A stretch of DNA of 64,000 nt from assembly GCA_947372865.1 (NCBI GenBank), contig CANBVJ010000001.1, forward strand, positions 81,772 through 145,771, read 5' to 3'. How positions within the stretch are numbered: position 1 is the first letter of the stretch; each line of letters opens with the position of its first letter. The notes below the pieces were generated by a model. It saw only the letters and a list, made by a program, of their open reading frames with translations, had not been told where the DNA came from and searched no databases. Shown piece after piece: positions 2,227 to 52,112 of the stretch. Source of the DNA: Comamonadaceae bacterium (lineage in GTDB: Bacteria > Pseudomonadota > Gammaproteobacteria > Burkholderiales > Burkholderiaceae_C). Position numbers and translations under genes: made by a program.

Positions 2227-2330
2227 GGTGGGTGCAGCAAAAAAAGGTGGCTTGGACGCAAATGCGGGCGTGGTGCCCGGCGCGAGCGGGGGCGAAGGCG
2301 GCGCAAGGCCGCCCGGGCGGGCCAGCGCCG

Positions 2331-3590: not shown

Positions 3591-3644
3591 ATATCAACGG
3601 GATTATAAAATTGTTGCTACTTCGAAAGCATTTGCACACTATTT

Positions 3645-5240: not shown

Positions 5241-5382
5241 GCGGCTGAATTTAACCGCAAGCCGGTGCAGGGCGGCGGCAGGCTTCGCCTTACGCATCGC
5301 TTGTGAATGCTGCACTGCGGTACCATCACCTGCCGCCCTCTGTGGCACCCACCCAACGGACGCGCCGCTACCAAACCGACTG

Positions 5383-36639: not shown

Positions 36640-36664
36640 GCCTGCATTGTAGGCAGGCGCCCGC

Positions 36665-37198
36665 CTATTTGTGGAAAGGCGCTTTGGTGAACTTGGCGCA
36701 AATGCCCTTGAGCATGTGGCGCCGCGTGCCGTCTTTGAAGGTCAGGGTTTGCACAAAGGCGCCGTCGCTCAGGTCCAGGGTGAACTCTTCTTGGGTGATC
36801 ATCTGGCCAAAGCGCTCGAACATGGCCGGGCGGCTGACAAAGGCCTTGGTGCCTTCCATGCGCAGCGCGCCCTTGCGCGATTCTGAGATCGTGTATTCGC
36901 CCTGGTACCAGCCTGATTTGGCCTCGGGCTCCAGGCCCACGACCATGATGTCGGAATAGACCTTGGGCTCGGAATTGAGCGCGCCCTGGGGCGTGGAAAC
37001 CGTGACTTCACAGACAAAATTGCCGCCCTTTTTGCCTAGCAGGTTGGGGCCATCCAACTCGCCATCACGCCCGCCAGTGACGGACGGGCTGAGGTGAATC
37101 AGGTCCATTTCCACCGCCACCCAGCCCAGGCCGAGCGCCAGCAGCAGGGTGAACAGCGCGGTCAACAAAATGGCGGGCAGGGAGGATTGTTTTTTCAT
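36665..37198 (-). CDS. Hypothetical N-terminally anchored (predicted periplasm-facing) protein
   Basis: 177-aa ORF with one N-terminal TM helix ([23 protein letters not shown]). It starts 32 nt downstream of the carbonic anhydrase stop, preceded by an AAGG RBS. No recognisable family. Confidence 0.55.
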
Positions 37199-37230: not shown

Positions 37231-38541
37231 TTAATTGGTCGTGATTTCACGGCCATTGAGTTCCTGCACCGGGCGCGCATTGCGCTTGAACGGGAAGGCG
37301 GCGACTTGTTCCTTGGCCACGTTGACGGTGGACTTCAGGATGAAGAAGCGCACGCCCTCGGTACACGGCGGGGTGGTGAGCGAGCCTTCGTAGCTGTAGA
37401 AATCAAATTCGCGTGGCAACAGGTTGGCCGGGTTGAAGTTCACGCCTTCGGCGACCACTTCAGGGCCTTCTTCCAGGGGCATGTTGGCCCACAGGGTTTT
37501 GATGCCGGGGTTTTCGTTGCCCTCTTTGAGCAGCACGCCTAGTACCGCAAGCTTGCCCTCGGCGCTCTTGTGCACAAAGTGCACCACCATGGCCATGGGC
37601 TTGCCGTCGATTTTTTCTTCACTGGGGCGGTGGAAGTGGAATTGCAGCAGCTCGTGCGGCACGCCGTCGATGCGGATTTTGCTGCCCGGTGGCACGTTGA
37701 CCTGGATGGTGTGGCCGTTGTTGATCATTTTCAACGGACCTTCCTTGTAGTCGGTCGTCACCACGGTACGGGTTTTGACGAAGGGGCCGCGGATGTCCAG
37801 CGGCGACTGCGACTTGCCCTTGGCGCAGGTGGGGAACTCTTTGCCCCAGCGCTCGGGACCCATTTCACCGTCATAAGACCAGTGAACCGCGTGCTTTTCG
37901 GGGGTCTTTTTGTCGTCTGCTTTGCCGTGTCCATCGTCCTTGGCGTTCTCGTCTTTCGCCCCAGCTTTCTCGCCATGGGCGGGTTTTTCGTCCTTGGCGT
38001 CTTTTGCGCCCTCGGCTTTGGCGGCCTTGGGCAGGCAATCGGCCATGATGGCGACTTTTTCACCCGCCGCAGCCAATCCGATCTGGGCGGCACAAATGGT
38101 GTTCTTGCGGTCGCCCAGCTCGGACAACTGCAGCGCTTTGCGGAACGACTCAATGGCAGCCGGGTTGTCAGCACCCTTGGTGAGCATGCGCAGCGCGCCC
38201 AAGCCCACCTGCCGTTCGGCCGACAGGTTCTTTTGCGATTTGTAGGCGGTTTCCAGGTCGGCCAGCGTGGCGCCGTTGGCCATGGCAGCCTTGACGGCGG
38301 CGAGCTGCTGCACCTGGCCCTCCAGAGGTGCCATTTCTTCGCGCAGGGCGGCCATCTCTTCTTCGGCTGCCTTGATTGCAGCTTCTTTTTGGGTCGCCGT
38401 TTTGGCGGCTTCTTCAGCGGCCGCCGTGAGCTCGGTCAATTGGCCGGTGGCTTTCTGATTGCCTTTAAAGTTGGTCCAGCCAAAGGCGCCGGCGCCCACC
38501 AGGGCCAGGGCCAGGATGACTTCAATAATGGTTCTTTTCAT
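37231..38541 (-). CDS. Membrane-anchored coiled-coil / alpha-class carbonic anhydrase fusion
   Basis: The N-terminus has a TM helix, about 170 aa of A/E/K-rich helical sequence and a K/D/E-rich linker. A complete alpha-CA domain follows: HWSYDGE, NNGHTIQV, LQFHFH, VHFVH, GSLTTPPC and the Cys pair FPTC/TPPC. Start set to ATG 38541. Confidence 0.85.
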   Translation of the reverse strand: MKRTIIEVILALALVGAGAFGWTNFKGNQKATGQLTELTAAAEEAAKTATQKEAAIKAAEEEMAALREEMAPLEGQVQQLAAVKAAMANGATLADLETAYKSQKNLSAERQVGLGALRMLTKGADNPAAIESFRKALQLSELGDRKNTICAAQIGLAAAGEKVAIMADCLPKAAKAEGAKDAKDEKPAHGEKAGAKDENAKDDGHGKADDKKTPEKHAVHWSYDGEMGPERWGKEFPTCAKGKSQSPLDIRGPFVKTRTVVTTDYKEGPLKMINNGHTIQVNVPPGSKIRIDGVPHELLQFHFHRPSEEKIDGKPMAMVVHFVHKSAEGKLAVLGVLLKEGNENPGIKTLWANMPLEEGPEVVAEGVNFNPANLLPREFDFYSYEGSLTTPPCTEGVRFFILKSTVNVAKEQVAAFPFKRNARPVQELNGREITTN

Positions 38542-38592
38542 GGTGCTTCTCGGTTTACGCAATCAGGGGGAAAGGGAAGGGGCCGTGGATGG

Positions 38593-38619
38593 GTATCGGC
38601 AGGAAGGGAAGAAGTTTGA
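38593..38619 (-). promoter_or_regulatory. Sigma-28 (FliA)-type promoter upstream of the carbonic anhydrase gene
   Basis: The minus strand reads TCAAACTT-N11-GCCGATAC. It has the same architecture as the fliC, flaG and fliD promoters in this window. It sits 52 nt upstream of ATG 38541, just after the stop of the preceding lipoprotein gene. Confidence 0.55.
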
Positions 38620-38623
38620 GGCC

Positions 38624-39520
38624 TCACTGGTCACCCCGGAAGCTGATGCCGCTGCCACTGGTGTCGGTGAGGATGAGTTCGAGGCGTTTGGTCTTACCGG
38701 AGACGGGCGAGTTGTGGATAAAGCCGATGCCGGTCAAAACGGTTGGACCGATGCTGCTGGGCGGCGTGCGAACGCATCCGGTGCTCACTGGAATTTCCAA
38801 ACGCGCCAGGTAATAGGGGTTTGTCAGTGTTGACGCCGCAGTGAGCGTCAGATTCAACGGACAGAAGGCGTAGGTGGCGCTGTTTGTGAGGGCGCCTTCG
38901 CTGTTGAAGGTCAGGGTCAGATCGGCAGAGGCTGCGCTCAGGTTGTCCGTGAGTGTTCCCGTCCAGCTGCCAGGCAGTGCGGCGTAGCTGGTGATAGCGC
39001 TGGCGCTGAAACTTGGATTGGCTTGGTTGTTGGTAAGCGTAATGCCACTCAAGCTGACTTGATAGTTGGTGGCCGATGCGCCAGAAATCGATCCGCCGCC
39101 CGTGCTGAGATGGCTCGGGCTAGAGTTCACCAAGTGGGTGCTGAATTGAAATGCGGTCAGGCCCGGACTTGCAATAGTGGCGGAGGTGCTGCTGGTGCTG
39201 CTCAACGCTCCCCGGTAAATATCTGGGTAAATGCTGGCACTGGGGTTAGTCTGCAGGTAATACAAGGCGTACCAAGTAAGTTCCGGCGTCAAAAAACTTA
39301 TGAAATCGCTGCTGTACAAGCTGCCTTGGTAAGCCCCTGCCATTGCCAAACTAGGCGTAGAGCCACCCCCTGAATTTTGCTGCGATCCGTCTGTCGTGGT
39401 GCTGGTGCCGCTGCTTTGCCCGCCGCAAGACGAGAGCAGCGTGCCTGCCACCAGGCAGGACGCAGCCGCCCAGCGGCGCAGGGTGGTCAGGTTTGGGTGG
39501 CGCGAAGCGTTTGGGGTCAT
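38624..39520 (-). CDS. Ser/Thr-rich lipoprotein of unknown function, translationally coupled to the upstream gene
   Basis: Lipobox LLSSCGG. The mature part is Ser/Thr/Gly-rich and looks beta-strand-like. ATG 39520 overlaps the upstream stop (ATGA). GC content looks lower than the neighbours by eye. Confidence 0.6.
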   Translation of the reverse strand: MTPNASRHPNLTTLRRWAAASCLVAGTLLSSCGGQSSGTSTTTDGSQQNSGGGSTPSLAMAGAYQGSLYSSDFISFLTPELTWYALYYLQTNPSASIYPDIYRGALSSTSSTSATIASPGLTAFQFSTHLVNSSPSHLSTGGGSISGASATNYQVSLSGITLTNNQANPSFSASAITSYAALPGSWTGTLTDNLSAASADLTLTFNSEGALTNSATYAFCPLNLTLTAASTLTNPYYLARLEIPVSTGCVRTPPSSIGPTVLTGIGFIHNSPVSGKTKRLELILTDTSGSGISFRGDQ

Positions 39521-40272
39521 GGTGATATCCACCCCGCTTGCAGCCAGTGGCAGTAGCCGGGGCTAAAAGGCCAGGCAATGTGGTGCACCGGCGTGCCTGC
39601 GGGAAAAACGTGGTCGGTCAGGTGGTCCAGCCACTCGCCTTGGGCGTGCAACTGGCGGCTGAAGCGGCCGAGTTCGACCGGGCGGGTGGCGCTCTGCGCT
39701 GGCTGGCTGGCTGCAGAGGTGGGGGCGGGCGCTTGCACGCTGCGCTGCATGATGGGTGCGCTGGCGCTGCCGGCGCGGCGCTGCGTGCGTCCAGAGAAAG
39801 CGTCGTGCACGCTGCCCCAGCGCCGGCCGTGCATGCGGGCGGTGATGGTGTCAATCCGGCGGCTAGCCTCGTCCACCGACGGGGTGTGAAAGCGCAATTG
39901 GCCCAGTACGTTGTCAAACAGCACCAGCGCACGCGGGTGGGCTTGCAACACGGCGTCCAGGTCGGTCAGGGCGTCGGCGGTGTTGCATTGCAAAGCCGTG
40001 TTGGAGGCGCGCAGTGCCGCGCCGTGGCGCAGCCGAAACAAGGGCGCAGCCCAGCGGTCCAGGTCAAAAGTGGTCACGGTTTGAAAGCCTTGCAGCCAGC
40101 TGCTGGGCATCATCCACCCGGCGCTGGCGCCCACGATCACTAGTTCTGAATGGGTGTCTTTTGACGGCGGCATCTGGCCCAGCCACTGCGCGATGTCGGC
40201 GCAGGTCGCCGTCCACTGCGCCTGGTGGCGCCAGGCGTGCAGATGCCAGAACAGGCCGCCGGAGGGGTTCAT
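39517..40272 (-). CDS. Hypothetical protein translationally coupled to fliJ
   Basis: 251-aa ORF whose ATG (40272-40270) overlaps the fliJ stop (ATGA). It has a central P/A/S/Q-rich linker. No recognisable family. Confidence 0.6.
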   Translation of the reverse strand: MNPSGGLFWHLHAWRHQAQWTATCADIAQWLGQMPPSKDTHSELVIVGASAGWMMPSSWLQGFQTVTTFDLDRWAAPLFRLRHGAALRASNTALQCNTADALTDLDAVLQAHPRALVLFDNVLGQLRFHTPSVDEASRRIDTITARMHGRRWGSVHDAFSGRTQRRAGSASAPIMQRSVQAPAPTSAASQPAQSATRPVELGRFSRQLHAQGEWLDHLTDHVFPAGTPVHHIAWPFSPGYCHWLQAGWISP

Positions 40273-40712
40273 GCGGCGCGGGCCTGGTTGAATTGCAGCA
40301 TGCCGAGTTCGTCCATGCTGTGCTGCTCGCGCTTGTTGGTGTACTTTTGCACAGCCAGGCGGTCGTTCTCGGTCAGGGTTTTCATCTTCAGGCGCTCAGC
40401 TTCGGCCTGCAGCATGCGGTGCGCCAGGGTTTGCAGGTGCAACTGCGAGGTACCAATGTCACGGTCCACCCGCTCGCGCAGCGTCAAAAGCTGCGACATG
40501 AACTGGCGCTGGTTCATGGCGTCGGACATGCCACGGGACGTGTCGGCGGCAGCGGTCTTGGCGCGGTACTCTTCATAGAGTTGCTCCAAGCGCTGCTGGC
40601 TGGCCAAAAGCGAATCGCGCAGTTGTTCGGCCTGCACGGTCTCCGCGCGCAGCTTGGTGATGTTTTGCTCGGCCTTGCCTTCCAGGGCGGACCAACAGGC
40701 GCGGATCTTCAT
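40269..40712 (-). CDS. fliJ: Flagellar export protein FliJ
   Basis: 147-aa coiled-coil protein directly after fliI. It has a FliJ-like heptad pattern and a C-terminal DEL motif region. Confidence 0.8.
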   Translation of the reverse strand: MKIRACWSALEGKAEQNITKLRAETVQAEQLRDSLLASQQRLEQLYEEYRAKTAAADTSRGMSDAMNQRQFMSQLLTLRERVDRDIGTSQLHLQTLAHRMLQAEAERLKMKTLTENDRLAVQKYTNKREQHSMDELGMLQFNQARAA

Positions 40713-40761: not shown

Positions 40762-42084
40762 TCAGAGTTCCATCAGCACGCGCAAGTCGGTGCGGCAGCT
40801 CGACTCTTCCACGCCGGCGTACATGTCTTGGCGCAGGTAGTTTTCCATGGTCTCGCGCAGCAAAATGGCCTGGTCGATTTCGGGGTTGGAGCCGGCCTGG
40901 TAGGCGCCCACCTGAATCAGATCCACGTTTTGCTGGTAGAGCGACCACAAGCGGCGAAAGCGGTTGGCCAGCTTCAAATCGGTGGGCGAGAGCAGGTTTT
41001 GCATCACGCGCGAGATCGAGCCCGTCAGGTCAATGGCGGGGTAATGCGCGGCGTCGGCCAGCTTGCGCGAGAGCATCACCTGGCCGTCGAGCGAGGCGCG
41101 GGCAATGTCCACAATCGGGTCGTTGCCGTCGTCGCCTTCGGCCAGCACGGTGTAGATGGCGGTAATCGAGCCGTGCCCATGGCGCCCCACACCGGCGCGT
41201 TCAATCAAATTGGGCAAGAGCGCAAACACCGAAGGCGGGTAGCCCTTGGACGTGGGTGGCTCGCCAATGGCCAGGCCAATCTCGCGCTGGGCGTGGGCCA
41301 CGCGGGTCAGGCTGTCCACCAGCATGAGCACGTCTTTGCCCTGGTCACGAAAATATTCGGCCACCACGTGGGTCAGGTGCGCGGCTTTGAGGCGCAGCAC
41401 GGGCGACACATTGGCCGGGGCGGCAATCACCACGGCCTTGGCCAGGCCTGCGGGCCCGAGTGTTTCTGTAATAAAGGCTTGCACCTCGCGCCCGCGTTCG
41501 CCAATCAGGCCAATGACGACGATGTCGGCTTTGGTAAAGCGCGTGAGCATGCCCAAAAGCACGCTCTTGCCCACGCCAGAGCCGGCCACCAGGCCGACGC
41601 GCTGGCCGCGCCCCAGCGTGAGCAAGCCGTTGATGGCTTTGACGCCTACGTCCAGCACTTTGTTGATGGGGCCGCGCTCCATGGGGTTCAGGGGCAGGCC
41701 CAAGAGGCCGAGTTTGGTAGTGCATGCGGGTTTGGGTTTGCCGTCCAGCGGCTCGCCTTGGGCGTCAATCACGCGGCCCAGCAGTTCTTCGCCCAGGAGC
41801 GCGTGGCCGCTTTCGCTGATCACCCGCACCGAGGCGCCCGGGCCAATGCCCACGGGCTCAGAAAACGGCATGAGGTAAATGGTTTTGTCGGCAAACCCCA
41901 CCACTTCGGCCTCAATGCGGTGGCCGGCTTGGCCGACCACTTCGCAGCAGGCGCCCACCGGCGCCATGATGCCGCGCGCCTCCAGGCGCAAGCCCACCAG
42001 CCGCACCAGCGTGCCGCTGCGCGCAGGGCGCGTGCTGCGCAGTTGCGCCACGGCTTGGTCGACTTCGGTGTCGAAGTTAAACAT
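40762..42084 (-). CDS. fliI: Flagellum-specific ATPase FliI
   Basis: Walker A GSGVGKSVLLGM and Walker B VLMLVDSLTR, similar to the F1/T3SS ATPase core. Start set to ATG 42084 (MFNFDTE), an 8-nt overlap with the fliH stop. Confidence 0.95.
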   Translation of the reverse strand: MFNFDTEVDQAVAQLRSTRPARSGTLVRLVGLRLEARGIMAPVGACCEVVGQAGHRIEAEVVGFADKTIYLMPFSEPVGIGPGASVRVISESGHALLGEELLGRVIDAQGEPLDGKPKPACTTKLGLLGLPLNPMERGPINKVLDVGVKAINGLLTLGRGQRVGLVAGSGVGKSVLLGMLTRFTKADIVVIGLIGERGREVQAFITETLGPAGLAKAVVIAAPANVSPVLRLKAAHLTHVVAEYFRDQGKDVLMLVDSLTRVAHAQREIGLAIGEPPTSKGYPPSVFALLPNLIERAGVGRHGHGSITAIYTVLAEGDDGNDPIVDIARASLDGQVMLSRKLADAAHYPAIDLTGSISRVMQNLLSPTDLKLANRFRRLWSLYQQNVDLIQVGAYQAGSNPEIDQAILLRETMENYLRQDMYAGVEESSCRTDLRVLMEL

Positions 42085-43090
42085 GGTCTTCTGCGTCACG
42101 CAGGATTTCGTCAATCGCCGCTACCGTGTCGTAGCCGGCGTCAATGGGTTCGCTGGCTGCGCTTACGGTGGAGGCGCTGGGCGCCATGCGCGGGCGGGCG
42201 TCTTCCACGCCGGTGCCGGGTAGGCGGTCGCTGGCAATGCGCTCGGGGCTGAACGCCGTGCTGGCGCGCCAACGGGGTTCGTCCACGGCCAAACCCCGCG
42301 CTAGGGCGCTCAGACGTTCACCAATCAGGTCTTCCACCAGGGCGTCGTTGGCGCTGGCGCGCACGCTGCCGGGCAGGAGTTTGTCGTTGGGCTGCAGGCG
42401 CAGGGCCGAGCCCTCGGCCAGGCCAGAGCGCTCGCGCAGCGCTTGCAGCATGGTCAGGTCGGCGGGGTTGAGTTCTACCATGACCAAAGATTCATCGTGC
42501 TGCGCGAGTTCGTCCACACAGCGTTGCACCAGGCGCTCAATAGCGCCGCCGTCCAGGGCCAGTTCGGCCAGCACCAGTTGTTCGGCCAGGTGCAGCGCCA
42601 GGCGCTTGAGTGGCTCAAAAAAGGTTTGCGGGCTTTGCTGCAGCAGGGCCAGCGCGTCGGCCAGGGCGTTGACCAAGGCATGGTCGTCGCCGAGTGCTGC
42701 GCGCAGCTTGTCTTCCATCTCGGTTTGCAGCGCGGCGCGGGCCTCAGCGGCGCCTTGGGCGCGGCCTTCTTCGCGTGCTTGGGCCAAGGCCTCGGCGGTA
42801 GCGACAGGCGTTTCCACCACGAGAGGGGGGGCGGGCGCAGCAACGGCATCATCCGTGGCGGGGGTTTCTTCCAATTCGGGGGTGACGGGCGGTGGCAGCA
42901 GGTCGACCGTAGGGATGTCAAAGTCGGTCAGGCCAAACACCGGCTCGCGCTGGGTGCGCCAGGCGCTGGCGACAAAACCGCTCTCAGGCGCAATCGGGTG
43001 GCGCAGGTCGGTGGGTTGCCAGACGCGCGCCGGGCGCACCTCGGCTTTACGGGCGTCCGCTTGCGCGGAAGCTGCCCCGTCCTTAGACAT
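42077..43090 (-). CDS. fliH: Flagellar assembly protein FliH (long form)
   Basis: 337 aa between fliG and fliI. It has an E/A-rich coiled-coil centre and a FliH-like C-terminal domain (VELNPADL...LRLQPNDKLLPGSVRA). The ATG overlaps the fliG stop. Confidence 0.8.
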   Translation of the reverse strand: MSKDGAASAQADARKAEVRPARVWQPTDLRHPIAPESGFVASAWRTQREPVFGLTDFDIPTVDLLPPPVTPELEETPATDDAVAAPAPPLVVETPVATAEALAQAREEGRAQGAAEARAALQTEMEDKLRAALGDDHALVNALADALALLQQSPQTFFEPLKRLALHLAEQLVLAELALDGGAIERLVQRCVDELAQHDESLVMVELNPADLTMLQALRERSGLAEGSALRLQPNDKLLPGSVRASANDALVEDLIGERLSALARGLAVDEPRWRASTAFSPERIASDRLPGTGVEDARPRMAPSASTVSAASEPIDAGYDTVAAIDEILRDAEDHV

Positions 43091-44138
43091 AGTCGGCGCC
43101 GCCGCCTAGCACCAGATCGCCCGCGTCGGCCAGTTTGCGCGCCGAGCGCATGATGATTTTTTGGGCGTCTTCCACGTCCGACAGGCGCATGGGGCCCATG
43201 GCCTCCATGTCGTCTTTGAACATGCCCCGTGCGCGCTCGGACATATTGCCCAGAAACTTGTCTTTGACCGCGTCGCTGGCGCCTTTGAGGGCTTTCATCA
43301 TCAAGTCGGGTTCGACATTGCGCATGATCACCTGGATGCCCTTGTTGTCCACGCCGGTCAGGTTCTCGAAGGTGAACATATTGTCCTGAATCTTCTGCAT
43401 CAGGTCTGGATCCAGGGTGCGCAGGCCACCCATCACCGAGGCTTCGAGCGCCGTTTTGGTCAGGTTCAAAATATTGGCTGCGGCCTTGATGCCGCCCAGG
43501 CTCGAAGACTTGGACGTCGAGTTGGTGGAAAACTGCTTTTTCATGATGGCTTCAAGCTCAATCATGGCTGAGGGCTGCACCGTCTCTAAGCTGGCCACGC
43601 GCTGCATGATTTCGGCGCGCGACTCGGGCGGCAAAAAGTTCAGCACCTCGGCGGCGACGCCGTTTTCCAGTACGGACAAGATGATGGCCACCACCTGGGG
43701 GTGTTCGGCCTTGATCATGTCAGCAATCGAGCGGGCGTCCATCCAGCTCAAAATCTCCAGGCCTTTGCTGCCTTGGCTGGGGTTGATGCGTCCCAGCACC
43801 GAGGCGGCTTTGTCGTCGCCCAGGGCGCGCTTGAACACTTTTTCGACATAGTCTGAGGTGCCCAAGCCCAGGTTGGTCTGGCGTTTGATCTCGGCCACAA
43901 ACTCGTCAAGCACGGCGTTGACCGCCTCTTGCGAGAGTTCGGCCACCTGCACCATGGCCACGCCCAGGCCCTGGACTTCTTTGGGGTTGAGGTAGCGGAT
44001 GATGTTGGCGGCTTGCTCTTCACCGAGCAGCAGCATGAGCACGGCGGCGCGCTGGGTGCCGGTCAGGGCGTCCATTTCCCGACGCAAGGCGTCGGTATAG
44101 CCTGCGGGGCCCGTCAGTTTGGGGTCGTTCTCTGCCAT
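43083..44138 (-). CDS. fliG: Flagellar motor switch protein FliG
   Basis: 351 aa containing AAVLMLLLGEE.AA.I..L, the EHPQ motif (EHPQVVAIILS) and the C-terminal torque helix region (RLSDVEDAQKIIM). Confidence 0.95.
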   Translation of the reverse strand: MAENDPKLTGPAGYTDALRREMDALTGTQRAAVLMLLLGEEQAANIIRYLNPKEVQGLGVAMVQVAELSQEAVNAVLDEFVAEIKRQTNLGLGTSDYVEKVFKRALGDDKAASVLGRINPSQGSKGLEILSWMDARSIADMIKAEHPQVVAIILSVLENGVAAEVLNFLPPESRAEIMQRVASLETVQPSAMIELEAIMKKQFSTNSTSKSSSLGGIKAAANILNLTKTALEASVMGGLRTLDPDLMQKIQDNMFTFENLTGVDNKGIQVIMRNVEPDLMMKALKGASDAVKDKFLGNMSERARGMFKDDMEAMGPMRLSDVEDAQKIIMRSARKLADAGDLVLGGGADYV

Positions 44139-44159: not shown

Positions 44160-46028
44160 TCAGCCGGGCTTGATCATGTTCTTCAGCACGCTGGCCACAC
44201 GGGCCGAGTCGTCGGAGACGATCATGCGGATCAGGGCGACCTTGTCGTCGTAAGTGTTTGCAGTATCGAGCATCTCGGCAGAGATGGCAGACTTGTTGGA
44301 CTTCATCTTCGCCTTCATCTCTTCGAGCGTGTCGGCAGCGGACGGCTGGGCGCTGGCGGCTTCGGCGGTAGCTGCAGCGGCAGATTCGAGCGCCATGGTC
44401 TCTTCCTGGGCCAGTTGAATGGTTTGGGCAGCGGCCTGGGCGGCTTCCTTGTCGCGGTTCATCATGTGCATGACGACGGGGCGCACCACGACCATCAGGA
44501 AGGCGACAAACATCAGACCCAGAAAGCCCGACTTGATGTTGGTCATGACCGACTCGTCCTTGTGCCAGGGAATGCTCATGTCCATGGGCACTTCAGGTTC
44601 AAACTTGGCTTGCACCACGCTGACCACGTCTTTGCGGCCTTCGTCAAAACCGACCACGCCGCGCACGAGCTCTTGCATGCGTTCCACTTCTTCGGTGGTG
44701 TAGGGGTTGGGTTTAGGGGGTTGGTCTTCACCTTTGTCGTTTTTGGGCTGGGCCAAAGGCGGGCGCTCATTGATCACGACGGCCACACTCAGGCGCTGTA
44801 CGCCACCGGTGGCGCTCTTGGTGTGGCGCACCTGGCGGTCCATCTCGTAGTTACGGGTGCTGCGAGCGGCAATGGTGGTGCGCTCGTCTGCGCCAGCAGC
44901 GCCTGGGGCGACAGCGGCGGTGGTGAGCGACGTGGTGGGAGCCGGGGGCGCGGTGTTGGACAGGGTGCCAGGAATGCCAGCGGCCTCTTTGGCGCTGTTG
45001 CGGTCTTCGCTGATCACTTCGGAGCGGGTTTTTGGGCCTTTGCCGCCGGTGTCAAAGTCTTCGACGGTGGTTTCGGTCTGGCTGTAGTCCAGGTTCAGGT
45101 TGACTTGCGAGCGCACATTGGCCTCGCCCACGATGGGCGCCAAAATCTGGATCACGCGCTGGCGGTACAGGTCTTCCATGGCCTGTTTGTGCTTGGTCTG
45201 GCCGGCGTTCATGCCCATGGAGGCGTCAGACTCGGCGTCCGTCATCAGCTTGCCAAAGTTGTCCACCACGGCCACGTTCTCAGGCGTGAGCATGGGCACG
45301 CTCGACGCCACCAAATGAACAATCGCCTGGACCTGCATGGGGCTCACGCTGCGTCCGGCCTGGGGTGTTACGACGATGGACGCCTTGGGCGGCGTGCGGT
45401 CGCGCACAAACACCGAAGGCTTGGTGGTAGCCAGATGCACGCGGGCGGTCTGGATGGAGTCAATCTGCTGGATGCTGCGTGCCAGCTCTTGCTCCATGGC
45501 CGAGTTGTAGCGCACCTGCTCCATGAACTGGCTGGTCGTCATGGCGGACTGGTCTTTGAGCGCGTCCAGACCGGTGGCTGCGGTTTTGGGCAGGCCTTTG
45601 GACGCCAGGTACATGCGCGCCTCGTGGTAACGGCTCCCGGGCACGGTGATCTGGCCGCTGCCGGCGTCAATCACGGGTTTGAACTCGCCTTGCTTGAGGG
45701 CCTCGTACACGCCTTGCTGGTCAGTCTCGGTCATGCCGCTCATGACCGGACGGTAGCTCGGCGCGTTGATCATGGTGTAGACCAATGCAAACGCCAAGAG
45801 CGCCATGGCAATCACCATCAGGGGCAACGATTTTTTGACAGCCGGCTGGTTGAGCACTTGCTTGATTGGGCCAAAGGGGCCGGAATAGTCGGGCGACGCG
45901 TCGCTAAACCCCGTGTCACCCGCACGGCCGGCCATGGCGCGCCGGTCGCCGCCCGCGCGGGTTTGCAAAGATCCGGAATCGGCATTGGCAGGGAGAAAAG
46001 TGCCAGCGGTTGCAGTTGCGGTTGCCAT
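44160..46028 (-). CDS. fliF: Flagellar MS-ring protein FliF
   Basis: 622 aa with N- and C-terminal TM helices, YscJ/FliF ring-building motifs (ARVHLA, PSVFV) and a C-terminal FliG-binding tail. Confidence 0.93.
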   Translation of the reverse strand: MATATATAGTFLPANADSGSLQTRAGGDRRAMAGRAGDTGFSDASPDYSGPFGPIKQVLNQPAVKKSLPLMVIAMALLAFALVYTMINAPSYRPVMSGMTETDQQGVYEALKQGEFKPVIDAGSGQITVPGSRYHEARMYLASKGLPKTAATGLDALKDQSAMTTSQFMEQVRYNSAMEQELARSIQQIDSIQTARVHLATTKPSVFVRDRTPPKASIVVTPQAGRSVSPMQVQAIVHLVASSVPMLTPENVAVVDNFGKLMTDAESDASMGMNAGQTKHKQAMEDLYRQRVIQILAPIVGEANVRSQVNLNLDYSQTETTVEDFDTGGKGPKTRSEVISEDRNSAKEAAGIPGTLSNTAPPAPTTSLTTAAVAPGAAGADERTTIAARSTRNYEMDRQVRHTKSATGGVQRLSVAVVINERPPLAQPKNDKGEDQPPKPNPYTTEEVERMQELVRGVVGFDEGRKDVVSVVQAKFEPEVPMDMSIPWHKDESVMTNIKSGFLGLMFVAFLMVVVRPVVMHMMNRDKEAAQAAAQTIQLAQEETMALESAAAATAEAASAQPSAADTLEEMKAKMKSNKSAISAEMLDTANTYDDKVALIRMIVSDDSARVASVLKNMIKPG

Positions 46029-46093: not shown

Positions 46094-46432
46094 TTAGACC
46101 GGCATGTTCATGATGTCTTCATAGGCCTTGAGTACCTTGTTGCGCACCTGCAAGGTGGCTTCAAAGGACAGCGAGGCTTTTTGCATCTTCAGCACCACGT
46201 CGGTCAGGGGCACGGCTTCGCCCCGCTCAAAGGCCTGGGCGGTGTTTTGCGAATCCACTTGCGAGGCATTGGTCTGGCTCACCGCCTGGCGGATCAAATC
46301 CGAGAAGTCCGTCTTGGGCGTGGGCGCCGCGCCGGGCAGATCAAAGCCCTGTCCCGTAGCCTGGGTGCTGTGGGTTTGCAGCGTTTTGAGCATGGCGGCA
46401 ATGCTGCTGGCGGAGGTGGCGGATTCGATCAT
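46094..46432 (-). CDS. fliE: Flagellar hook-basal body complex protein FliE
   Basis: 112 aa with C-terminus ASLSFEATLQVRNKVLKAYEDIMNMPV, typical of FliE. Confidence 0.9.
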   Translation of the reverse strand: MIESATSASSIAAMLKTLQTHSTQATGQGFDLPGAAPTPKTDFSDLIRQAVSQTNASQVDSQNTAQAFERGEAVPLTDVVLKMQKASLSFEATLQVRNKVLKAYEDIMNMPV

Positions 46433-46467: not shown

Positions 46468-47937
46468 TCAGGAATGGGCAGACAGGCCAGGGGCCGTGTC
46501 GCGCAGGCGGGCAAGCTTGTAGCGCAGGGTGCGCGGGCTGATGCCCAGTTTTTGCGCCGCTTCTTCGCGGCTGCGTGATGCGTCCAGCGCCGCGCGGATG
46601 GCGTGGTGTTCGCTGTGCTTGACCGTGGCGTGCAAGGGACCGGGCGCCAGGGTCTGGACCTGTGCGATCGCTGGCGCCTGCTCGGCGGTAGTTGCTGCGT
46701 CCATGCTGGCTTCGGGCGCCATGGCCAGCAGGAAACTGGTCGAGGCGTCGTCAAACATCAGGTGCGGCGTGTCAATGTGGGTGTCGGGGCACAAGACCAT
46801 GGCGCGCTGCATGATGTTTTCCAGTTCGCGCACATTGCCCGGCCAGTTGTAGGACAGCAGCACGCGCTGGGCGTCCGCGCTCAGGTTCCAGGGCTGATTG
46901 CTGCGCACATGGCGCGCCAGCAGGCGGGCCACCAGGGGCAAGATGTCGCCCGTGCGTTCGGCCAGCGGCGGCACGCGCAGCTTGAAAGTGCTGAGGCGAA
47001 AGTACAAGTCTTCGCGAAAGGCGCGCTGGGCAATTTGCTCGCGCAGGTTTTTGTTGGTGGCAGCCACCACGCGCACGTCAAGCGCAATAGCACGTTCGCC
47101 GCCCAAGCGCACCAAGCTGCGCTCTTGCAGCACGCGCAGCAGCTTGGCTTGCAGGGCCAGGGGCAGTTCGCCAATTTCGTCCAGAAACAGCGTGCCGCCC
47201 TGGGCTTGTTCAAACAGGCCGCGGTGCTCTTTGACCGCGCCAGTGAAAGCGCCTTTTTCGTGGCCAAACAGCATGTCTTCAATCATGTGCTCGGGCAGGG
47301 CGGCGCAGTTCAGGCCAATAAAAGGGCCGTTGGCAGCAGAGGATGACTCGTGCAGCACGCGCGCCAGCACTTCTTTGCCCGAACCGGTAGGGCCTTCGAC
47401 CAGCACGGCCACGGGGGCCTGCGCCACGCGCTGGGCCAGGGCCAGCAGGTTGCGGCTGACGGGGTCTACATAGACCACGCTGCGCACGGCGGCGCCAATA
47501 TTGGGCGCCAGCGGGCGGGCGTGGGCTGCTTGTTCGGTGTTGGGTTTGGCTGCTACAGGCGTGCAGCGGTCGAGCGCCAGGCGCCAGGCGGCGGCAGACC
47601 AATCGTCTGCGGCCAGCACGTGGCAGGCGCCGCTGTGCAGGGCCAGCACGGCGAGTTCTAGTTGGCGGCGCTCAAGGCGGCAGACCAGGGGTAGCGTGCG
47701 GCCCGTGGTGTGAATCAGGGCCAGGGTGTCTTGCAAGAGTTCAATGTCAGCGCCCAAGCCCAGCACCACGGTCGCCGTTTGGCTGGATGCGGCTGCTATT
47801 GCGGCCTGCAGTTCGTCCAGCGTGCTCACAGTCAGCACGTCCATGCCTGCGGCGGCCAACAGCGCGCGGTCCGCTGCCGTCAGGGGGCGAAACGGGTCGA
47901 GCCAGAGGGCTTGCGTGGGGCTAGAAGAGGCGGACAT
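46468..47937 (-). CDS. fleQ: Sigma-54-dependent transcriptional activator, FleQ-like (flagellar regulator)
   Basis: AAA+ core with GPTGSGKEV, GAFTGA (GHEKGAFTGAV) and a C-terminal Fis-type HTH (AAQKLGISPRTLRYKLARL). The N-terminal receiver-like domain appears to lack the acceptor Asp. Start is ATG 47937 or TTG 47952. Confidence 0.88.
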   Translation of the reverse strand: MSASSSPTQALWLDPFRPLTAADRALLAAAGMDVLTVSTLDELQAAIAAASSQTATVVLGLGADIELLQDTLALIHTTGRTLPLVCRLERRQLELAVLALHSGACHVLAADDWSAAAWRLALDRCTPVAAKPNTEQAAHARPLAPNIGAAVRSVVYVDPVSRNLLALAQRVAQAPVAVLVEGPTGSGKEVLARVLHESSSAANGPFIGLNCAALPEHMIEDMLFGHEKGAFTGAVKEHRGLFEQAQGGTLFLDEIGELPLALQAKLLRVLQERSLVRLGGERAIALDVRVVAATNKNLREQIAQRAFREDLYFRLSTFKLRVPPLAERTGDILPLVARLLARHVRSNQPWNLSADAQRVLLSYNWPGNVRELENIMQRAMVLCPDTHIDTPHLMFDDASTSFLLAMAPEASMDAATTAEQAPAIAQVQTLAPGPLHATVKHSEHHAIRAALDASRSREEAAQKLGISPRTLRYKLARLRDTAPGLSAHS

Positions 47938-47978
47938 ACGGGTTTGGGGCAAGGTGGTGTCAGAGTTAAACCCCTTGC

Positions 47979-47994
47979 TGCAAGACCCGTGCCA
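47979..47994 (-). promoter_or_regulatory. Sigma-54 promoter (-24/-12) upstream of the activator gene
   Basis: The minus strand reads TGGCAC-GGGTC-TTGCA, an exact match to TGGCAC-N5-TTGCW. It lies in the 57-nt gap before the activator start. Confidence 0.65.
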
Positions 47995-48009: not shown

Positions 48010-48246
48010 TTATTGACGATTTGCCGACACCTTGGCGGACGCGCCGGCCGTCTTGGGCTCAAACCCCTGGCAGGCCCGGCCATCGAGCTGCAGCACCTGC
48101 ATGCAAGGCAGCATGCGCGACTTAAAGCCCAGCAGCTTGCAGCTATAGGGCAGCGCTGGGTCCCAGCTCGTGGCGAAGTGGCGGCACTGCCAGCAGTTGA
48201 CGGCGGGCGGCGAGCCTTTGGAATAGGTGGGGATGTTGGGGGGCAT
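48010..48246 (-). CDS. Small Cys-rich protein of unknown function
   Basis: 78 aa from ATG 48246: MPPNIPTYSKGSPPAVNCWQCRHF..W...LPYSCKLLGFKS...PC......DGRACQGFEPK. It has five Cys in a CxxC...C...C...C pattern. It is preceded by a sigma-54 promoter. Confidence 0.55.
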   Translation of the reverse strand: MPPNIPTYSKGSPPAVNCWQCRHFATSWDPALPYSCKLLGFKSRMLPCMQVLQLDGRACQGFEPKTAGASAKVSANRQ

Positions 48247-48288
48247 AGGCGGCTTGGGGCGGGGCAGGGTGGTGTGCGCGGGGTGGGA

Positions 48289-48304
48289 TGCAAGTTGTGC
48301 GCCA
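48289..48304 (-). promoter_or_regulatory. Sigma-54 promoter upstream of the small Cys-rich gene
   Basis: The minus strand reads TGGCGC-ACAAC-TTGCA (GG and GC correctly spaced), 43 nt upstream of ATG 48246. Confidence 0.6.
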
Positions 48305-48343
48305 GGGCGTATCCCAATTTGCGTAAACGTGTAAAGTGGCCCA

Positions 48344-48583
48344 ATGGCACCAACCATAGCCCGCGACGGCCAATTTCGTTTGTTCTTTTTCTCCCGTGAG
48401 GAGACAAGAATCCACGTTCATATTGCCCACCCGCAGGGCGAGGCAAAGTTCTGGCTGACGCCATCAGTACACTTGGCGAAGAACGTCGGGCTGTCTGGCG
48501 TCCAGTTGCGCCAAGCGCAATCGGTGGTCGAGGCGCACCTTTTGGAGATTCAAAATGCATGGAACTACCACTTTGGCGGCTGA
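48344..48583 (+). CDS. DUF4160-domain protein
   Basis: 79 aa containing F.FFFSREE..IHVH.......AKFWL, characteristic of DUF4160. Confidence 0.8.
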   Translation: MAPTIARDGQFRLFFFSREETRIHVHIAHPQGEAKFWLTPSVHLAKNVGLSGVQLRQAQSVVEAHLLEIQNAWNYHFGG

Positions 48584-48812
48584 AGTGACCAATGTGTCCA
48601 CGCACTGCCTCTGGCTGTTGCTTGGCGACGAGGAACTGGTTCTGCCTTTTGCTGACTTTCCGTGGTTCAAGAAGGCGACCATTGAGCAGCTTTCCGACGT
48701 CCAGCACCCAACCGAAGACCATCTTTATTGGCCACAACTGGACGTTGATCTGTCGGTAGAGTCCATTCGCAGGCCACAGGCCTTTCCTCTGGTGGCGGCA
48801 ATCTCGGACTAA
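48555..48812 (+). CDS. DUF2442-domain protein
   Basis: 85 aa with the pattern V......L.L.L.D.....P...FPW...AT.EQL......E..L.WP.LD.DL, typical of DUF2442. It overlaps the DUF4160 gene by 29 nt, the usual two-gene module. Confidence 0.8.
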   Translation: MHGTTTLAAEVTNVSTHCLWLLLGDEELVLPFADFPWFKKATIEQLSDVQHPTEDHLYWPQLDVDLSVESIRRPQAFPLVAAISD

Positions 48813-49009: not shown

Positions 49010-50260
49010 ATGGCCACTTTGCACCCCACACGCCGCGTTTTGGCGCTTATGCCCTTGTATGTGCAGCGGTTTGCGTGCACCGGTGCGCAGTGCGAAGACA
49101 CGTGCTGTTCGGGCTGGACGGTGGTGATTGACAAAAAAACCTACCAGTCGTACCGGCAAACCAAAACCCCGCCGCTAGGTGGGCGCCTGGACGCCCAAGT
49201 CAAACGCATGCGCAGCGCGGCGTCAGACGCCAACTATGGCCGCATTGAACTGCGGCCCGACACTGGCGAATGCCCCATGCTCGAAGAACGCCTTTGCTCG
49301 GTGCAAAACGCGCTCGGTGAAGACAAGCTCTCTAACGTCTGCTTTACCTACCCCCGCAAAGTGCAGCAGGCAGGCGACGTCTGCCAGCAAGCGCTCACTT
49401 TGTCGTGCCCCGAGGCCGCGCGCCTGGCGCTACTGGCAGACGACGCGTTTGAATTTGTGGAAAGCGACATCGCCGTGCGGCCCGCCGTGGTGGAACAGGT
49501 GCTGCCCAAGTGGGGCCTGAGCTTGGAGCAAATGAACGAGGTCCGTTTTTTTTGCCTGCAGATTGTTCGCGGCGAGGGCCTGCAACTCTGGCAAAAACTG
49601 GCCATGCTGGGGCTGTTTTGCGAAACCTTGACCCAGGCCCTGCAAGCCGGAGAACAAGACCGCCTGGCTGAAACCATGCAGACCACCCGCACGCTGATTA
49701 CCAGCGGGCAAGCCGCCGACTTGTTTGCCAACATGGCCCCGCAGCACGACATGCAGGCGCTGACCTTTCATTTGCTGTGGCGGTTTTCCAAGACCATCCA
49801 CATGCGCCCCACGCACCGCATGGTGTTTGACGCGATGGCCGACGGCCTGGGCGCCGACCCTAAGACCGGCGAGGTGCCCGAGGCGCAGCTTATTGCCCGC
49901 TACCAGCAAGGGCTGGCTTTGCTGCCCACGGCTTTGCAAGACGCCCCGGCCTTGATGCAAAACTTTGTGCAAAACGACATGCTGCGCGAGATCTTTCCGT
50001 TTGGCGCCAGCGGTGGCAACGACAGCCCACAAGACCAGTTTTTGCGCCTGGCCACACGGTATGGCCTCGTGCGCTTCATGCTGGCCGTGCAATGCCGCGC
50101 CGATGCGCCACTGCCGGGCGTGCCCGCCCTGGTGCGCACGGTGCAGGTGTTTGCGCGGCGCTTTCAGCATGACAGTGGGTTTGCCGCGCAGGTGGACACC
50201 TGCTTGAAGAGCTTGGGCTGGGACCCGCTCGACAAGATTTTCAGGCTGCTCAAACCTTAA
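49010..50260 (+). CDS. fliB: FliB-family flagellin lysine-N-methylase
   Basis: 416 aa. The N-terminal Cys cluster FACTGAQCEDTCCSGWTVVIDKKTYQSY matches my recollection of the FliB F.C.G..C.D.CC.GW....DK motif. Convergent with fliC. An alternative ATG lies at 49049. Confidence 0.75.
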   Translation: MATLHPTRRVLALMPLYVQRFACTGAQCEDTCCSGWTVVIDKKTYQSYRQTKTPPLGGRLDAQVKRMRSAASDANYGRIELRPDTGECPMLEERLCSVQNALGEDKLSNVCFTYPRKVQQAGDVCQQALTLSCPEAARLALLADDAFEFVESDIAVRPAVVEQVLPKWGLSLEQMNEVRFFCLQIVRGEGLQLWQKLAMLGLFCETLTQALQAGEQDRLAETMQTTRTLITSGQAADLFANMAPQHDMQALTFHLLWRFSKTIHMRPTHRMVFDAMADGLGADPKTGEVPEAQLIARYQQGLALLPTALQDAPALMQNFVQNDMLREIFPFGASGGNDSPQDQFLRLATRYGLVRFMLAVQCRADAPLPGVPALVRTVQVFARRFQHDSGFAAQVDTCLKSLGWDPLDKIFRLLKP

Positions 50261-50349: not shown

Positions 50350-51501
50350 TTACTTGAGCAAGGCCAGCACGCTTTGTTGCGACTGGTTGGCTTGCGCCAG
50401 CATGGCGGTCGATGCCTGGGCGATGATCTGGGTACGAGCCAGTTCGGTCGACGCTTTGGCGTAGTCAGTATCCTGCACACGGCTGCGGGAGGCAGACGCG
50501 TTTTGCGAGATGTTGGCCAAGTTGTCGGCGGTGTAGGTCAGGCGGTTGATGCCAGCACCCAGGTTGGAGCGTGATGCATTAACGTCCGTCAACGCGGTAG
50601 AGACTTCCGTGATCGCCGCTTGCGCAGCGGATTGGGTGCTGATGTTGCCTGTCACCATTGATGTGCCACCAGTCGACTTTGTCAACGTCTCGCTAAAGGG
50701 AACGGTCCCCGTGAGCACCACGGTGTTGGTGTCAGATGTTGCCACTGCCGTAGTGCCAGTAAGAATGCCAGAAGCGGTGAGTCCCGAGGCGATATTCGCG
50801 GCCACTGTGGCACCGCGAGCGGCGGCATCAGCACCGGTCATATCCGCTGCAGTTACCTGGTAAGAGAAACTTTTGCCATTGACATTCGTCGTGTAAGTTG
50901 CACCAAGGGTTGGGACAATGGCATCCGATGTTTGGATCAAACCAGTGGCATCGGGAGTCAGGGCCACGGTGGCTGGAGCTGCGCCTGCTACACCACCGAT
51001 GTGCACTTGCATACGTTGGGCTGCTGCGTCGTTAGCGCCAATTTGGAAGGTAAAGTTGCCGCTGTTGTCGCCTGCAGCGCCCGATCCGTCCAAAATGTTC
51101 ATGCCGTTCCACTGCGTGGTGGAGCCAACGCGTCCGATTTCAGTTTTGAGGGCAGAAAACTCATTGTTCAAAGCCGTGCGGTCTGAACCGACGTTCGTGT
51201 CGGAAGCGGCTTGCACTGCCAGTTCACGCATACGTTGCAGCATGTCGTTGACTGCACTCAAGGCGCCGTCAGCCGTTTGCAACATGGAAATTGCGTCGTT
51301 GGCGTTGCGAACCGATTGGTCCAGACCGCGGATTTGCGAGGTCATCTTGGATGCGATGGCCAGGCCGGCGGCGTCGTCCTTGGCGCCGTTGATGCGCAGG
51401 CCGGTGGACAGTTGTTGCATGGCTTTGGACTGGGCCAAACCGTTGGAGCTCATGGCGTTTTGGGCGATGAGCGAGCTGACGTTGGTGTTAATGACTGACA
51501 T
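50350..51501 (-). CDS. fliC: Flagellin
   Basis: 383 aa. It has a conserved N-terminus (INTNVSSLIAQN...LSTGLRINGAKDDAAGLAIA) and C-terminus (SRVQDTDYAKASTELARTQIIAQASTAMLAQANQ). The central variable domain is Ala/Thr/Gly-rich. Confidence 0.95.
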   Translation of the reverse strand: MSVINTNVSSLIAQNAMSSNGLAQSKAMQQLSTGLRINGAKDDAAGLAIASKMTSQIRGLDQSVRNANDAISMLQTADGALSAVNDMLQRMRELAVQAASDTNVGSDRTALNNEFSALKTEIGRVGSTTQWNGMNILDGSGAAGDNSGNFTFQIGANDAAAQRMQVHIGGVAGAAPATVALTPDATGLIQTSDAIVPTLGATYTTNVNGKSFSYQVTAADMTGADAAARGATVAANIASGLTASGILTGTTAVATSDTNTVVLTGTVPFSETLTKSTGGTSMVTGNISTQSAAQAAITEVSTALTDVNASRSNLGAGINRLTYTADNLANISQNASASRSRVQDTDYAKASTELARTQIIAQASTAMLAQANQSQQSVLALLK

Positions 51502-51567: not shown

Positions 51568-51594
51568 GAATCGGTTGCTGTAGCGGAAACTTGA
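51568..51594 (-). promoter_or_regulatory. Sigma-28 (FliA) promoter of fliC
   Basis: The minus strand reads TCAAGTTT-N11-ACCGATTC, against the consensus TAAAGTTT-N11-GCCGATAA. It is followed by a GGAGAAA RBS about 7 nt before the fliC ATG. Confidence 0.7.
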
Positions 51595-52085: not shown

Positions 52086-52112
52086 GAATCGGCAGCTCTG
52101 GCAAGAACTTGA
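52086..52112 (-). promoter_or_regulatory. Sigma-28 (FliA) promoter of flaG
   Basis: The minus strand reads TCAAGTTC-N11-GCCGATTC, followed by CTTAAGCC as at the fliD promoter. Confidence 0.65.

Follow-up and report, generated by a model that had tools for sequence, protein, structure and literature searches.

In a 64-kb window of a freshwater Comamonadaceae bacterium (that is, the whole stretch of 64,000 nucleotides analysed here), the flagellar genes fliE to fliJ are followed directly by orf251, which encodes a cytoplasmic protein of 251 residues, and by lipo298, which encodes a lipoprotein of 298 residues, and we consider it somewhat probable, at roughly 0.55, that this gene pair opens an accessory module, specific to its lineage, in the flagellar regulon of freshwater Comamonadaceae-type Betaproteobacteria. 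The order of the module is orf251, the variable lipoprotein, a membrane-tethered periplasmic alpha-carbonic anhydrase (CA, named CA443 in the window) and a fourth gene, orf177, and this module is conserved in one lineage and recurs, rearranged, in more distant relatives. We infer its flagellar function from context and fold. In particular, the flagellar link of orf251 holds up on the grounds of synteny and coupling, of the flagellar contexts of its distant relatives, and of transcript contigs that cross the gene junctions.

A sequence-only reading of this DNA had described consecutive ATGA overlaps joining fliJ, orf251 and the lipoprotein gene, and all of its coordinates hold: the stop of fliJ overlaps the ATG of orf251 at 40269-40272, and the ATG of lipo298 at 39520 overlaps the TGA of orf251 in a second ATGA. 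An alternative form of the lipo298 open reading frame (ORF), of 302 residues, begins at a GTG at 39532, and the ATG start is favored because 35 of the 58 related loci having the lipoprotein keep the identical 4-nt overlap with the orf251 stop. A pair of 4-nt overlaps is by itself ordinary in bacterial operons; it is the conservation of these overlaps, and not their mere presence, that exceeds chance. When one genome per species was scanned, 225 genomes were found to carry a relative of orf251, and the loci of the best 80 of these 225 were retrieved, where the order fliE-F-G-H-I-J-orf251 was found in 78 of the 80, the other two being one locus at a contig end and locus L070, to which we return below. 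The fliJ/orf251 overlap is of exactly 4 nt in 61 of the 78 loci, and the distance between both genes is at most 59 nt in all 78, which sustains the previous claim that these genes are tied to the flagellar operon. Across these loci, the identity of FliJ and FliH to the window proteins falls to about 40–50%, and that of orf251 falls in parallel to 45–60%, which suggests a constraint on orf251 comparable to that acting on FliJ and FliH. The genes beyond the module vary by lineage (pyrF, an ElyC-like gene, a GGDEF protein gene, or none recognized), and the module remains attached to fliJ. The unit also extends past position 38624 into CA443 and orf177, with the CA gene being found downstream of orf251 in every locus that has about 1 kb or more of sequence past orf251, and with orf177 being syntenic in most loci. 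The loci nearest to the window are lake metagenome-assembled genomes (MAGs) labelled Comamonadaceae, Rhodoferax, Limnohabitans, and Polaromonas, and the window sequence was detected in lake-water metagenomes.

The distant betaproteobacterial relatives of orf251, about 30% identical, occupy other flagellar settings. The order in L092 is fliJ, a sigma-54 activator gene, orf232, a Sel1-repeat lipoprotein gene, an orf177 homologue (46% identity), and the CA gene, with these last two adjoining each other on opposite strands. In L095 and L096, orf254, which belongs to the orf251 family, lies 5.5 kb downstream of fliJ, and in L086, L088, and L089 (L086 being the isolate LSUCC0115) orf248 stands immediately upstream of flhA-flhF-fliA. 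In L070, an Oxalobacteraceae MAG, an orf246-CA pair is located between motA and motB. Two of these settings contain further genes: the interval of L095 from the activator gene to orf254 (1887-5992) carries an Ion_trans channel gene (549 residues), a gene for a YLATT protein of three transmembrane segments, and three unnamed genes, and a VapBC (PIN/VapB) toxin-antitoxin pair together with a gene of 204 residues stands between the orf248 cluster and flhA in L088 (3510-4785) and L089 (5134-6409), this VapBC insertion being absent from the otherwise identical arrangement of LSUCC0115.

The orf251 family as a whole is a general one, and its betaproteobacterial branches have repeatedly been drawn into flagellar loci. 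Homologues of orf251 form 380 clusters at 90% identity, and a profile search against 1.84 billion representatives, clustered at the 50% identity level, gave 630 clusters at E<=1e-3, of which 539 also pass E<=1e-10, ranging over Betaproteobacteria, Bdellovibrionota, Binatia, Myxococcota, and Alphaproteobacteria. Two of the Bdellovibrionota members (L085 8001-8738 and L093 6001-6759) are placed between a divergent nuo operon and mfd, and the one of L085 overlaps the mfd start by 4 nt, this being a second tight coupling with an unrelated partner; in L090, the orf251-family gene overlaps the end of a PAS-GAF sensor gene.

The regulatory context of the module was approached by scanning with the enteric sigma-28 (FliA) consensus TAAAGTTT-N10-12-GCCGATAA. 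Only three sites with no more than 4 mismatches occur in the window, upstream of CA443, fliC, and flaG, each of them having 4 mismatches out of 16 positions. The motif precedes the CA gene with at most 4 mismatches in 50 of the 72 loci, and in 67 of 72 with at most 5, compared with a background of 1.5% and 6.2%, respectively, in random 150-nt windows of the same loci, and many of the CA-upstream instances are textbook ones, for example TCAAGTTT-N11-GCCGATAA. Such a site also precedes the CA gene of L070, with 2 mismatches, and no clear motif was found before the CA gene of L092. Given its conservation before the CA gene, this motif therefore makes CA a strong candidate for a late flagellar gene. 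A family-wide link of orf251 to FliA was considered as well and rejected, since the distant homologues mostly have no sigma-28 motif: none was found upstream of those of L085, L087, L090, L091, L093, and L095, and among the distant homologues scanned only L084, a Bacteriovoracia MAG, has one. In L084, the sigma-28-type sequence TAAAGTTC-N12-GCCGATTC (7919-7946, plus strand, 3 mismatches) lies 55 nt upstream of an orf251-family gene that has no flagellar neighbors.

At the other end of the gene run, the activator gene in front of fliE has a sigma-54 promoter-like site 27 nt before it; this site is likely, as a lead only, to be the start of the co-directional run, while the same pattern at up to 2 mismatches gave total matches no higher than chance. 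After orf177 lies the sole intergenic minus-strand terminator-like hairpin between fliE and pyrF, the remaining minus-strand matches of this interval being inside coding sequence. In the generic sigma-70 and terminator scan, the numbers of sites were not above chance, and we used their positions alone. No terminator-like hairpin was found after fliJ, orf251, or lipo298, which is a weak negative since the site count equals chance. Assembled contigs from three freshwater metatranscriptomes point in the same direction, with one contig crossing the fliJ/orf251 junction (39941-40425), two crossing the orf251/lipo298 junction (39368-39558 and 39405-39638), one crossing the lipo298/CA443 junction (38018-38730), and further contigs falling within lipo298 at 98–99% identity. 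These junction-crossing contigs support co-transcription without proving it. Contig depth, which is a poor measure, increases from lipo298 into CA443, as an extra promoter there would predict.

Regarding the nature of orf251, no Pfam or NCBIfam model matches this protein at the curated cutoff, with the Flg_hook model of FliK included, and lipo298 has zero Pfam or NCBIfam matches at E<=1, so that the initial impression of two proteins neither FliK-like nor of any recognizable family was correct. The identity of either protein as FliK was rejected with no Flg_hook match at E<=1 and with orf251 being a compact globular Rossmann-fold protein, and that of orf251 as FliB was rejected because it has no NF038110 match and because a separate true FliB gene exists in the window. 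A match to nSTAND3, recurrent in the orf251 scans at E about 0.002–0.008 and below cutoff, covers only strands 3–4 of the Rossmann core and was discarded as a generic echo of a nucleotide-binding fold.

The AlphaFold2 model of orf251, obtained from a 28-sequence input with a predicted local distance difference test score (pLDDT) of 85 and a predicted template-modelling score (pTM) of 0.86, shows an alternation of beta strands and alpha helices with seven strands (residues 43-47, 65-69, 93-97, 116-120, 152-162, 228-237, and 240-249), a closing antiparallel beta6-beta7 hairpin, and an N-terminal helical lid region. Foldseek against the PDB returned 135 matches at E<=1e-3, the best 50 of these 135 being all methyltransferases, and the enzymes among the matches listed include GNMT, PEMT, NNMT, OvsM, and PMT, mostly with a probability of 1.00. 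With profiles searched against PDB sequences, the close family of orf251 (profile A1) gave no match, and the broader profile (A3) gave a sole significant one, to CalS10 (E=0.002), which we take to be a sugar N-methyltransferase; in this alignment, the family segment GpSaG...vdlD pairs with GCGTG...LEL of CalS10, these being motifs I and II. Motif invariance was judged on 28 close and 12 distant members. Invariant or nearly invariant, even in members only 27–34% identical, are G48-x-S50-x-G52 after strand 1; the acidic D70 directly after strand 65-69 (always Asp among the 28 close members, with either Asp or Glu among the 12 distant ones) and D72, also after strand 2; F119-x-N121-x-L-G124-Q after strand 4; S154-x-H156-D157-x-x-S160 on strand 5; and, in addition, H10, D216-H217, W234, and H242. 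We therefore regard the predicted class I S-adenosylmethionine (SAM)-methyltransferase fold of orf251 as sound, and catalysis as likely rather than certain, since motif I carries a Ser in place of its central Gly and the protein matches no curated model. The earlier suggestion that the 251-residue protein could be a cytoplasmic modification factor is consistent with this fold.

Some of the same features could be read differently, with orf251 being a non-catalytic protein that has retained the methyltransferase fold and that, produced at the same pace as FliJ, assists export by serving FliJ, FliI, or FlhA as an adaptor or a chaperone-like partner. The deviating motif I, GxSxG with its invariant Ser, would fit such a role, as would the lack of any methyltransferase hidden Markov model (HMM) matching orf251 and the coupling to fliJ, which suggests matched amounts of FliJ and orf251. 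We give this little credence, given that the expected SAM-contact positions (the strand-1 loop, D70 or Glu, and FxNxLGQ) are invariant across the family of 630 clusters, that the polar residues H10, H156-D157, H217, and H242 are invariant as well, all these positions together making up an active-site-like pattern rather than a scaffold-like one, and that family members are also found in non-flagellar contexts.

The second protein of the module, lipo298, is indeed the Ser/Thr-rich lipoprotein with the lipobox LLSSCGG that had been recognized from the sequence, with a signal peptide and lipobox reading LVAGTLLSS|CGGQSS at its N-terminus and with Ser and Thr amounting to 30.5% of its residues. 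The lower GC noticed by eye in this region is real yet modest, with 0.589 overall and 0.565 centrally, and with a GC content at third codon positions (GC3) of 0.70 (0.68 in the center) versus 0.75–0.83 in neighbor genes. Its homologues form 59 clusters, and by profile search 58 of the 72 syntenic loci carry a homologue of 260–312 residues in this slot; a Cys-Gly-Gly lipidation site, identified by regular expression or by eye, and a signal peptide are present in all 58 of these, and the homologues share the C-terminus ...RLE/DhhhhD..GSGISFRGDQ. Given that Gly and not Asp follows the lipid-bearing Cys, and that in the E. coli sorting rule this leads to the outer membrane, the predicted destination of lipo298 is the outer membrane. 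AlphaFold2 modelled the protein with a pLDDT of 78.5, with residues 1-55 disordered and with the blocks from residue 61 mostly at 74–97, as a disordered Ser/Gly/Thr linker followed by an all-beta body of 15 strands. Foldseek of this model against the PDB and a viral library gave no match at E<=1e-3, leaving weak echoes of lipocalin/avidin-type single barrels, TbpB, a haemophore, and AimA (best E 8e-3, template-modelling (TM) score <=0.36), so the structural searches yielded significant fold matches for orf251 and none for the lipoprotein. Matches of the lipoprotein profile (A2) to RNA polymerase alpha subunit sequences of the PDB were weak and were rejected as spurious.

The most distinctive feature of lipo298 is its center, which is a recombining hypervariable cassette with conserved ends. 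Compared with L001, the nearest relative, DNA identity is 82–96% through fliI-fliJ-orf251 and mostly 88–99%, with short dips to 70–78%, through CA443-orf177, while inside the cassette (about 38800-39400) it is 43–59%, recovering to 92–99% at about 38600-38700. The mean pairwise protein identity of the lipoproteins is 0.40–0.47 in the center versus 0.74 in the last 40 residues, the lipoprotein identity across loci does not follow that of the neighbor genes, and alleles exist with near-identical N-terminal parts and differing centers. This variability suggests exposure to outside selection, for example by phage or grazers. Other lipobox proteins and small ORFs also occur around this slot: one sublineage (L017 2338-3036, L018 4074-4736, and L025 6080-6724) carries a second, unrelated lipobox protein of 214–232 residues between the variable lipoprotein and CA genes, and the L059-L080 group has an extra ORF of 129–168 residues between orf251 and the lipoprotein gene.

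The sequence-only reading had compared the lipoprotein with the FlgP/FlgT-type disk proteins, and this comparison was not supported. That lipo298 is a structural periplasmic or outer-membrane component of a basal-body ring or disk, in the manner of FlgP and FlgT, could be argued from its lipobox and likely outer-membrane sorting, from its co-transcription with basal-body genes, from the strong conservation of its C-terminal 40 residues as a possible docking surface, and from the Sel1-repeat lipoprotein that fills the slot in L092, the Vibrio T-ring protein MotX being a Sel1-repeat protein. We nevertheless consider it quite improbable, since neither FlgP/LPP20 nor FlgT family models match it and none of its fold matches is significant, since the lipoprotein is missing from 14 of the 72 otherwise syntenic loci, and since its center is swapped wholesale between near-identical genomes (43–59% versus flanks mostly at 82–99%), which would be unusual for a part that fits a conserved machine. 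A protein that can be lost and that varies so strongly looks more like one under selection from outside than like a core part of the basal body. Conservation of the arrangement in relatives thus stands for orf251, which follows fliJ in 78 of 80 loci, and fails for the lipoprotein in those 14 syntenic loci, 11 of which have merely 100–300 bp between orf251 and the next gene.

The downstream pair completes the module. CA443 is composed of an N-terminal membrane anchor, about 190 residues of helical or coiled-coil structure, a charged linker, and a C-terminal alpha-carbonic anhydrase domain, which matches Pfam PF00194 Carb_anhydrase over residues 235-442 (1.1e-39) and in which the zinc-ligand histidines are seen in the translation as FHFH...VHFVH. 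The linker is rich in Lys, Asp, Glu, and Ala, and the extension varies among relatives, with about 65 residues in L092 and a signal peptide only in L070. The product of orf177 has no family match in Pfam or NCBIfam and is probably periplasmic.

Several points weigh against the reading of these genes as a flagellar accessory module with a methyltransferase. Neither orf251 nor its 27 close and 10 distant relatives match any Pfam or NCBIfam model at the curated cutoff, the methyltransferase models included, the TM-scores of orf251 in Foldseek are just 0.31–0.48 at 9–16% identity, and its motif I is GxSxG, with the central Gly of GxGxG replaced by an invariant Ser. All 80 syntenic loci belong to one bacterial family, and the synteny is therefore partly shared ancestry. 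The promoters were called by consensus match alone, the metatranscriptome contigs carry no strand information and may include DNA, and no lipoprotein homologue is detectable in 14 of 72 syntenic loci. The orf251 family is also found without flagellar neighbors in Bacteriovoracia, Bdellovibrionota, Binatia, and others, and therefore the family as such is not flagellum-specific.

This last point leads to the main alternative, namely that the genes are passengers without flagellar function, with orf251 and CA forming a core for a CO2/bicarbonate or envelope task that is merely co-regulated with the swimming planktonic state and with the genes lying on the margin of the flagellar island because this is convenient for their regulation. 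The module stands in fact where the flagellar cluster gives way to housekeeping genes (pyrF, a GST, and an ElyC-like gene), orf251 and CA are still paired in L070, which has no fli genes beside them, and distant members of the orf251 family have non-flagellar neighbors. In contrast, 61 of 78 species preserve the tight translational coupling to fliJ, relatives recur in varied flagellar neighborhoods, near flhA and near motA/motB, and the sigma-28-type promoter before the CA gene speaks for a dedicated flagellar regulation instead of read-through; moreover, even as passengers, these genes would still be part of the flagellar regulon. We judge this alternative rather doubtful.

Returning to the accessory module that we favor, its working can be proposed as follows. 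The production of orf251 would be tied to that of FliJ, with orf251 carried on the fliE-J transcript and its start overlapping the fliJ stop; orf251 would then bind SAM and methylate a component of the flagellar export apparatus, or an export substrate, in the cytoplasm. The lipoprotein lipo298 would be sent to the outer membrane as an optional part under diversifying selection, and CA443 and orf177, as late flagellar genes, would speed the periplasmic equilibration of CO2, bicarbonate, and protons while the motor runs. Taken together, this would amount to a previously unrecognized flagellar accessory system, with a FliJ-coupled methyltransferase modifying the export machine, a sigma-28-driven CA/orf177 pair supplying or buffering protons or bicarbonate for the motor or the export gate, and a hypervariable outer-membrane lipoprotein encoded in the same operon; we offer this complete scheme only tentatively, and consider it unlikely in its entirety.

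The coordinates of the module, of its neighbors, and of the promoter-like and terminator-like sites are collected in Table 1, where fliE to fliI are named by tblastn synteny and by the Pfam families that their syntenic counterparts in L092 match.

Table 1. Genes and predicted sites of the flagellar region and its accessory module in the 64-kb window.
Feature	Coordinates	Strand	Basis or description
sigma-54 promoter-like site TGGCACGGGTCTTGCA	47979..47994	-	sole zero-mismatch TGGCAC-N5-TTGCW match in the window
sigma-54-dependent transcriptional activator, flagellar regulator type	46468..47952	-	Pfam Sigma54_activat 6.3e-66 and HTH_8
fliE	46094-46432	-	ORF list
fliF	44160-46028	-	ORF list
fliG	43083-44138	-	ORF list
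fliH	42077-43090	-	ORF list
fliI	40762-42114	-	ORF list
fliJ	40269-40712	-	Pfam FliJ 2.3e-09; NCBIfam also
orf251	39517-40272	-	251 residues, cytoplasmic; predicted class I SAM-methyltransferase fold
lipo298	38624-39520	-	298-residue lipoprotein; disordered linker and all-beta body
Hypervariable central cassette of lipo298	~38760..39450	-	boundaries approximate; DNA and protein identity
sigma-28 (FliA)-type promoter-like site TCAAACTT-N11-GCCGATAC	38593..38619	-	52 nt upstream of the CA443 ATG, in the 80-bp spacer
CA443	37231-38541	-	read from ATG 38541; Pfam Carb_anhydrase 1.1e-39
orf177	36665-37198	-	177-residue membrane-anchored protein with conserved Cys pair
Terminator-like hairpin	36640..36658	-	after orf177; sole intergenic minus-strand one between fliE and pyrF
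sigma-28-type site before fliC	51568-51594	-	consensus scan
sigma-28-type site before flaG	52086-52112	-	consensus scan

Some other features of the flagellar region deserve mention. Between fliB and the activator gene, there are two small overlapping ORFs of 79 and 85 residues on the plus strand (48344-48583 and 48555-48812), which have no NCBIfam match and may be toxin-antitoxin-like, and an ORF of 115 residues on the minus strand (48010-48357) has no NCBIfam match either. Two flagellar proteins encoded on the minus strand are unusually long, namely FlgK, with 1016 residues and a Flagellin_IN motif (55299-58349), and FliD, with 719 residues (52131-54290). A fliK gene was not located among the annotated genes of the window (roughly 33–64 kb).

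The lineage differences of flagellar motors lie mainly in accessory proteins, most of which have been found one organism at a time, and it is in this respect that the module matters: relatives of orf251 occur in at least 225 species-level genomes, including those of abundant lake bacteria of the Rhodoferax, Limnohabitans, and Polaromonas types, and the module is represented in natural metatranscriptomes, though in unstranded contigs. To our knowledge, none of the four module proteins has been studied before. If orf251 methylates a flagellar protein, it would add to flagellar biology a modification enzyme of a new type, separate from FliB and CheR, and if the sigma-28-driven CA acts on motor energetics, it becomes testable whether, in fresh water that is alkaline or poorly buffered, flagellar rotation or export is limited by the local supply of protons or bicarbonate. 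As far as we know, and from the literature that we searched, this would be the first functional link of a carbonic anhydrase with the bacterial flagellum. The lipoprotein cassette, in turn, would mark a strong outside selection, by phage or grazers, on a gene inside a flagellar operon. Finally, this methyltransferase-fold family of 630 clusters at 50% identity has no Pfam or NCBIfam model and merits one.

In comparison with known systems, the literature that we searched reports neither the coupling of a gene with a methyltransferase fold to fliJ nor the presence of a CA in a flagellar regulon, and orf251 itself is neither FliK, FliB, nor CheR. It resembles the small-molecule class I SAM N-methyltransferases (CalS10, GNMT, NNMT, phosphoethanolamine/PE N-methyltransferases, and OvsM) in the seven-stranded fold, the helical lid, and the size of about 240–260 residues, and differs from them in having only 9–16% identity and TM-scores of 0.31–0.48, a GxSxG motif I, no curated family, and a location inside flagellar operons. 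The flagellin lysine-N-methylase FliB shares with the proposed orf251 the condition of being a methyltransferase of a flagellar gene cluster, and FliB does modify a flagellar protein; nevertheless, it belongs to an unrelated family. A true FliB gene (49010-50260, plus strand) is in fact present in the window beside fliC, identified by NF038110 (E=1.6e-62) and by no Pfam model at E<=0.001, with the fliB gene being divergent from fliC (50350-51501, minus strand). Given that the window already has its own FliB, orf251 is therefore no replacement for it and probably has another target.

The nearest analogies of the module are of two kinds, operon-tail accessories such as FlhE and lineage-specific motor accessories such as FlgP, FlgT, MotX, and MotY. 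An article on FlhE (PMC11247099) was among the literature found. By its position, the module is reminiscent of flhE, likewise a non-core, lineage-limited gene, attached behind an operon for flagellar type III export at its 3' end. FlhE is a periplasmic protein encoded at the end of flhBA, whereas in the present module fliJ is followed by the genes for a cytoplasmic protein with a methyltransferase fold and for a lipoprotein, and then by the CA gene.

Concerning the lipoprotein, FlgP, FlgT, MotX, and MotY are likewise found in the periplasm or outer membrane of particular lineages, include lipoproteins, and have their genes among flagellar ones, but lipo298 differs from them in having no family or fold match, in being hypervariable, and in that it can be lost; no flagellar structure was significant in its Foldseek search, where one hook model appeared at E=0.19. 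A further likeness is found with the central domains of flagellins and with surface lipoproteins of the TbpB type, in which conserved ends also flank a center swapped between close relatives. As in such mosaic surface proteins, lipo298 is lipidated, with a long flexible linker and a beta-barrel-like body, whereas its fold matches are below significance and its surface exposure is putative.

In the case of CA443, the C-terminal domain is that of a standard periplasmic alpha-carbonic anhydrase of Gram-negative bacteria, with the zinc-ligand histidines kept, and what sets it apart is the tether to the inner membrane through a long helical extension, the sigma-28-type promoter, and the location in a flagellar cluster. 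In summary, the module belongs to the known class of lineage-specific flagellar accessory genes, and what is unusual in it is the combination of a methyltransferase fold, a hypervariable cassette, and a carbonic anhydrase with a sigma-28-type promoter.

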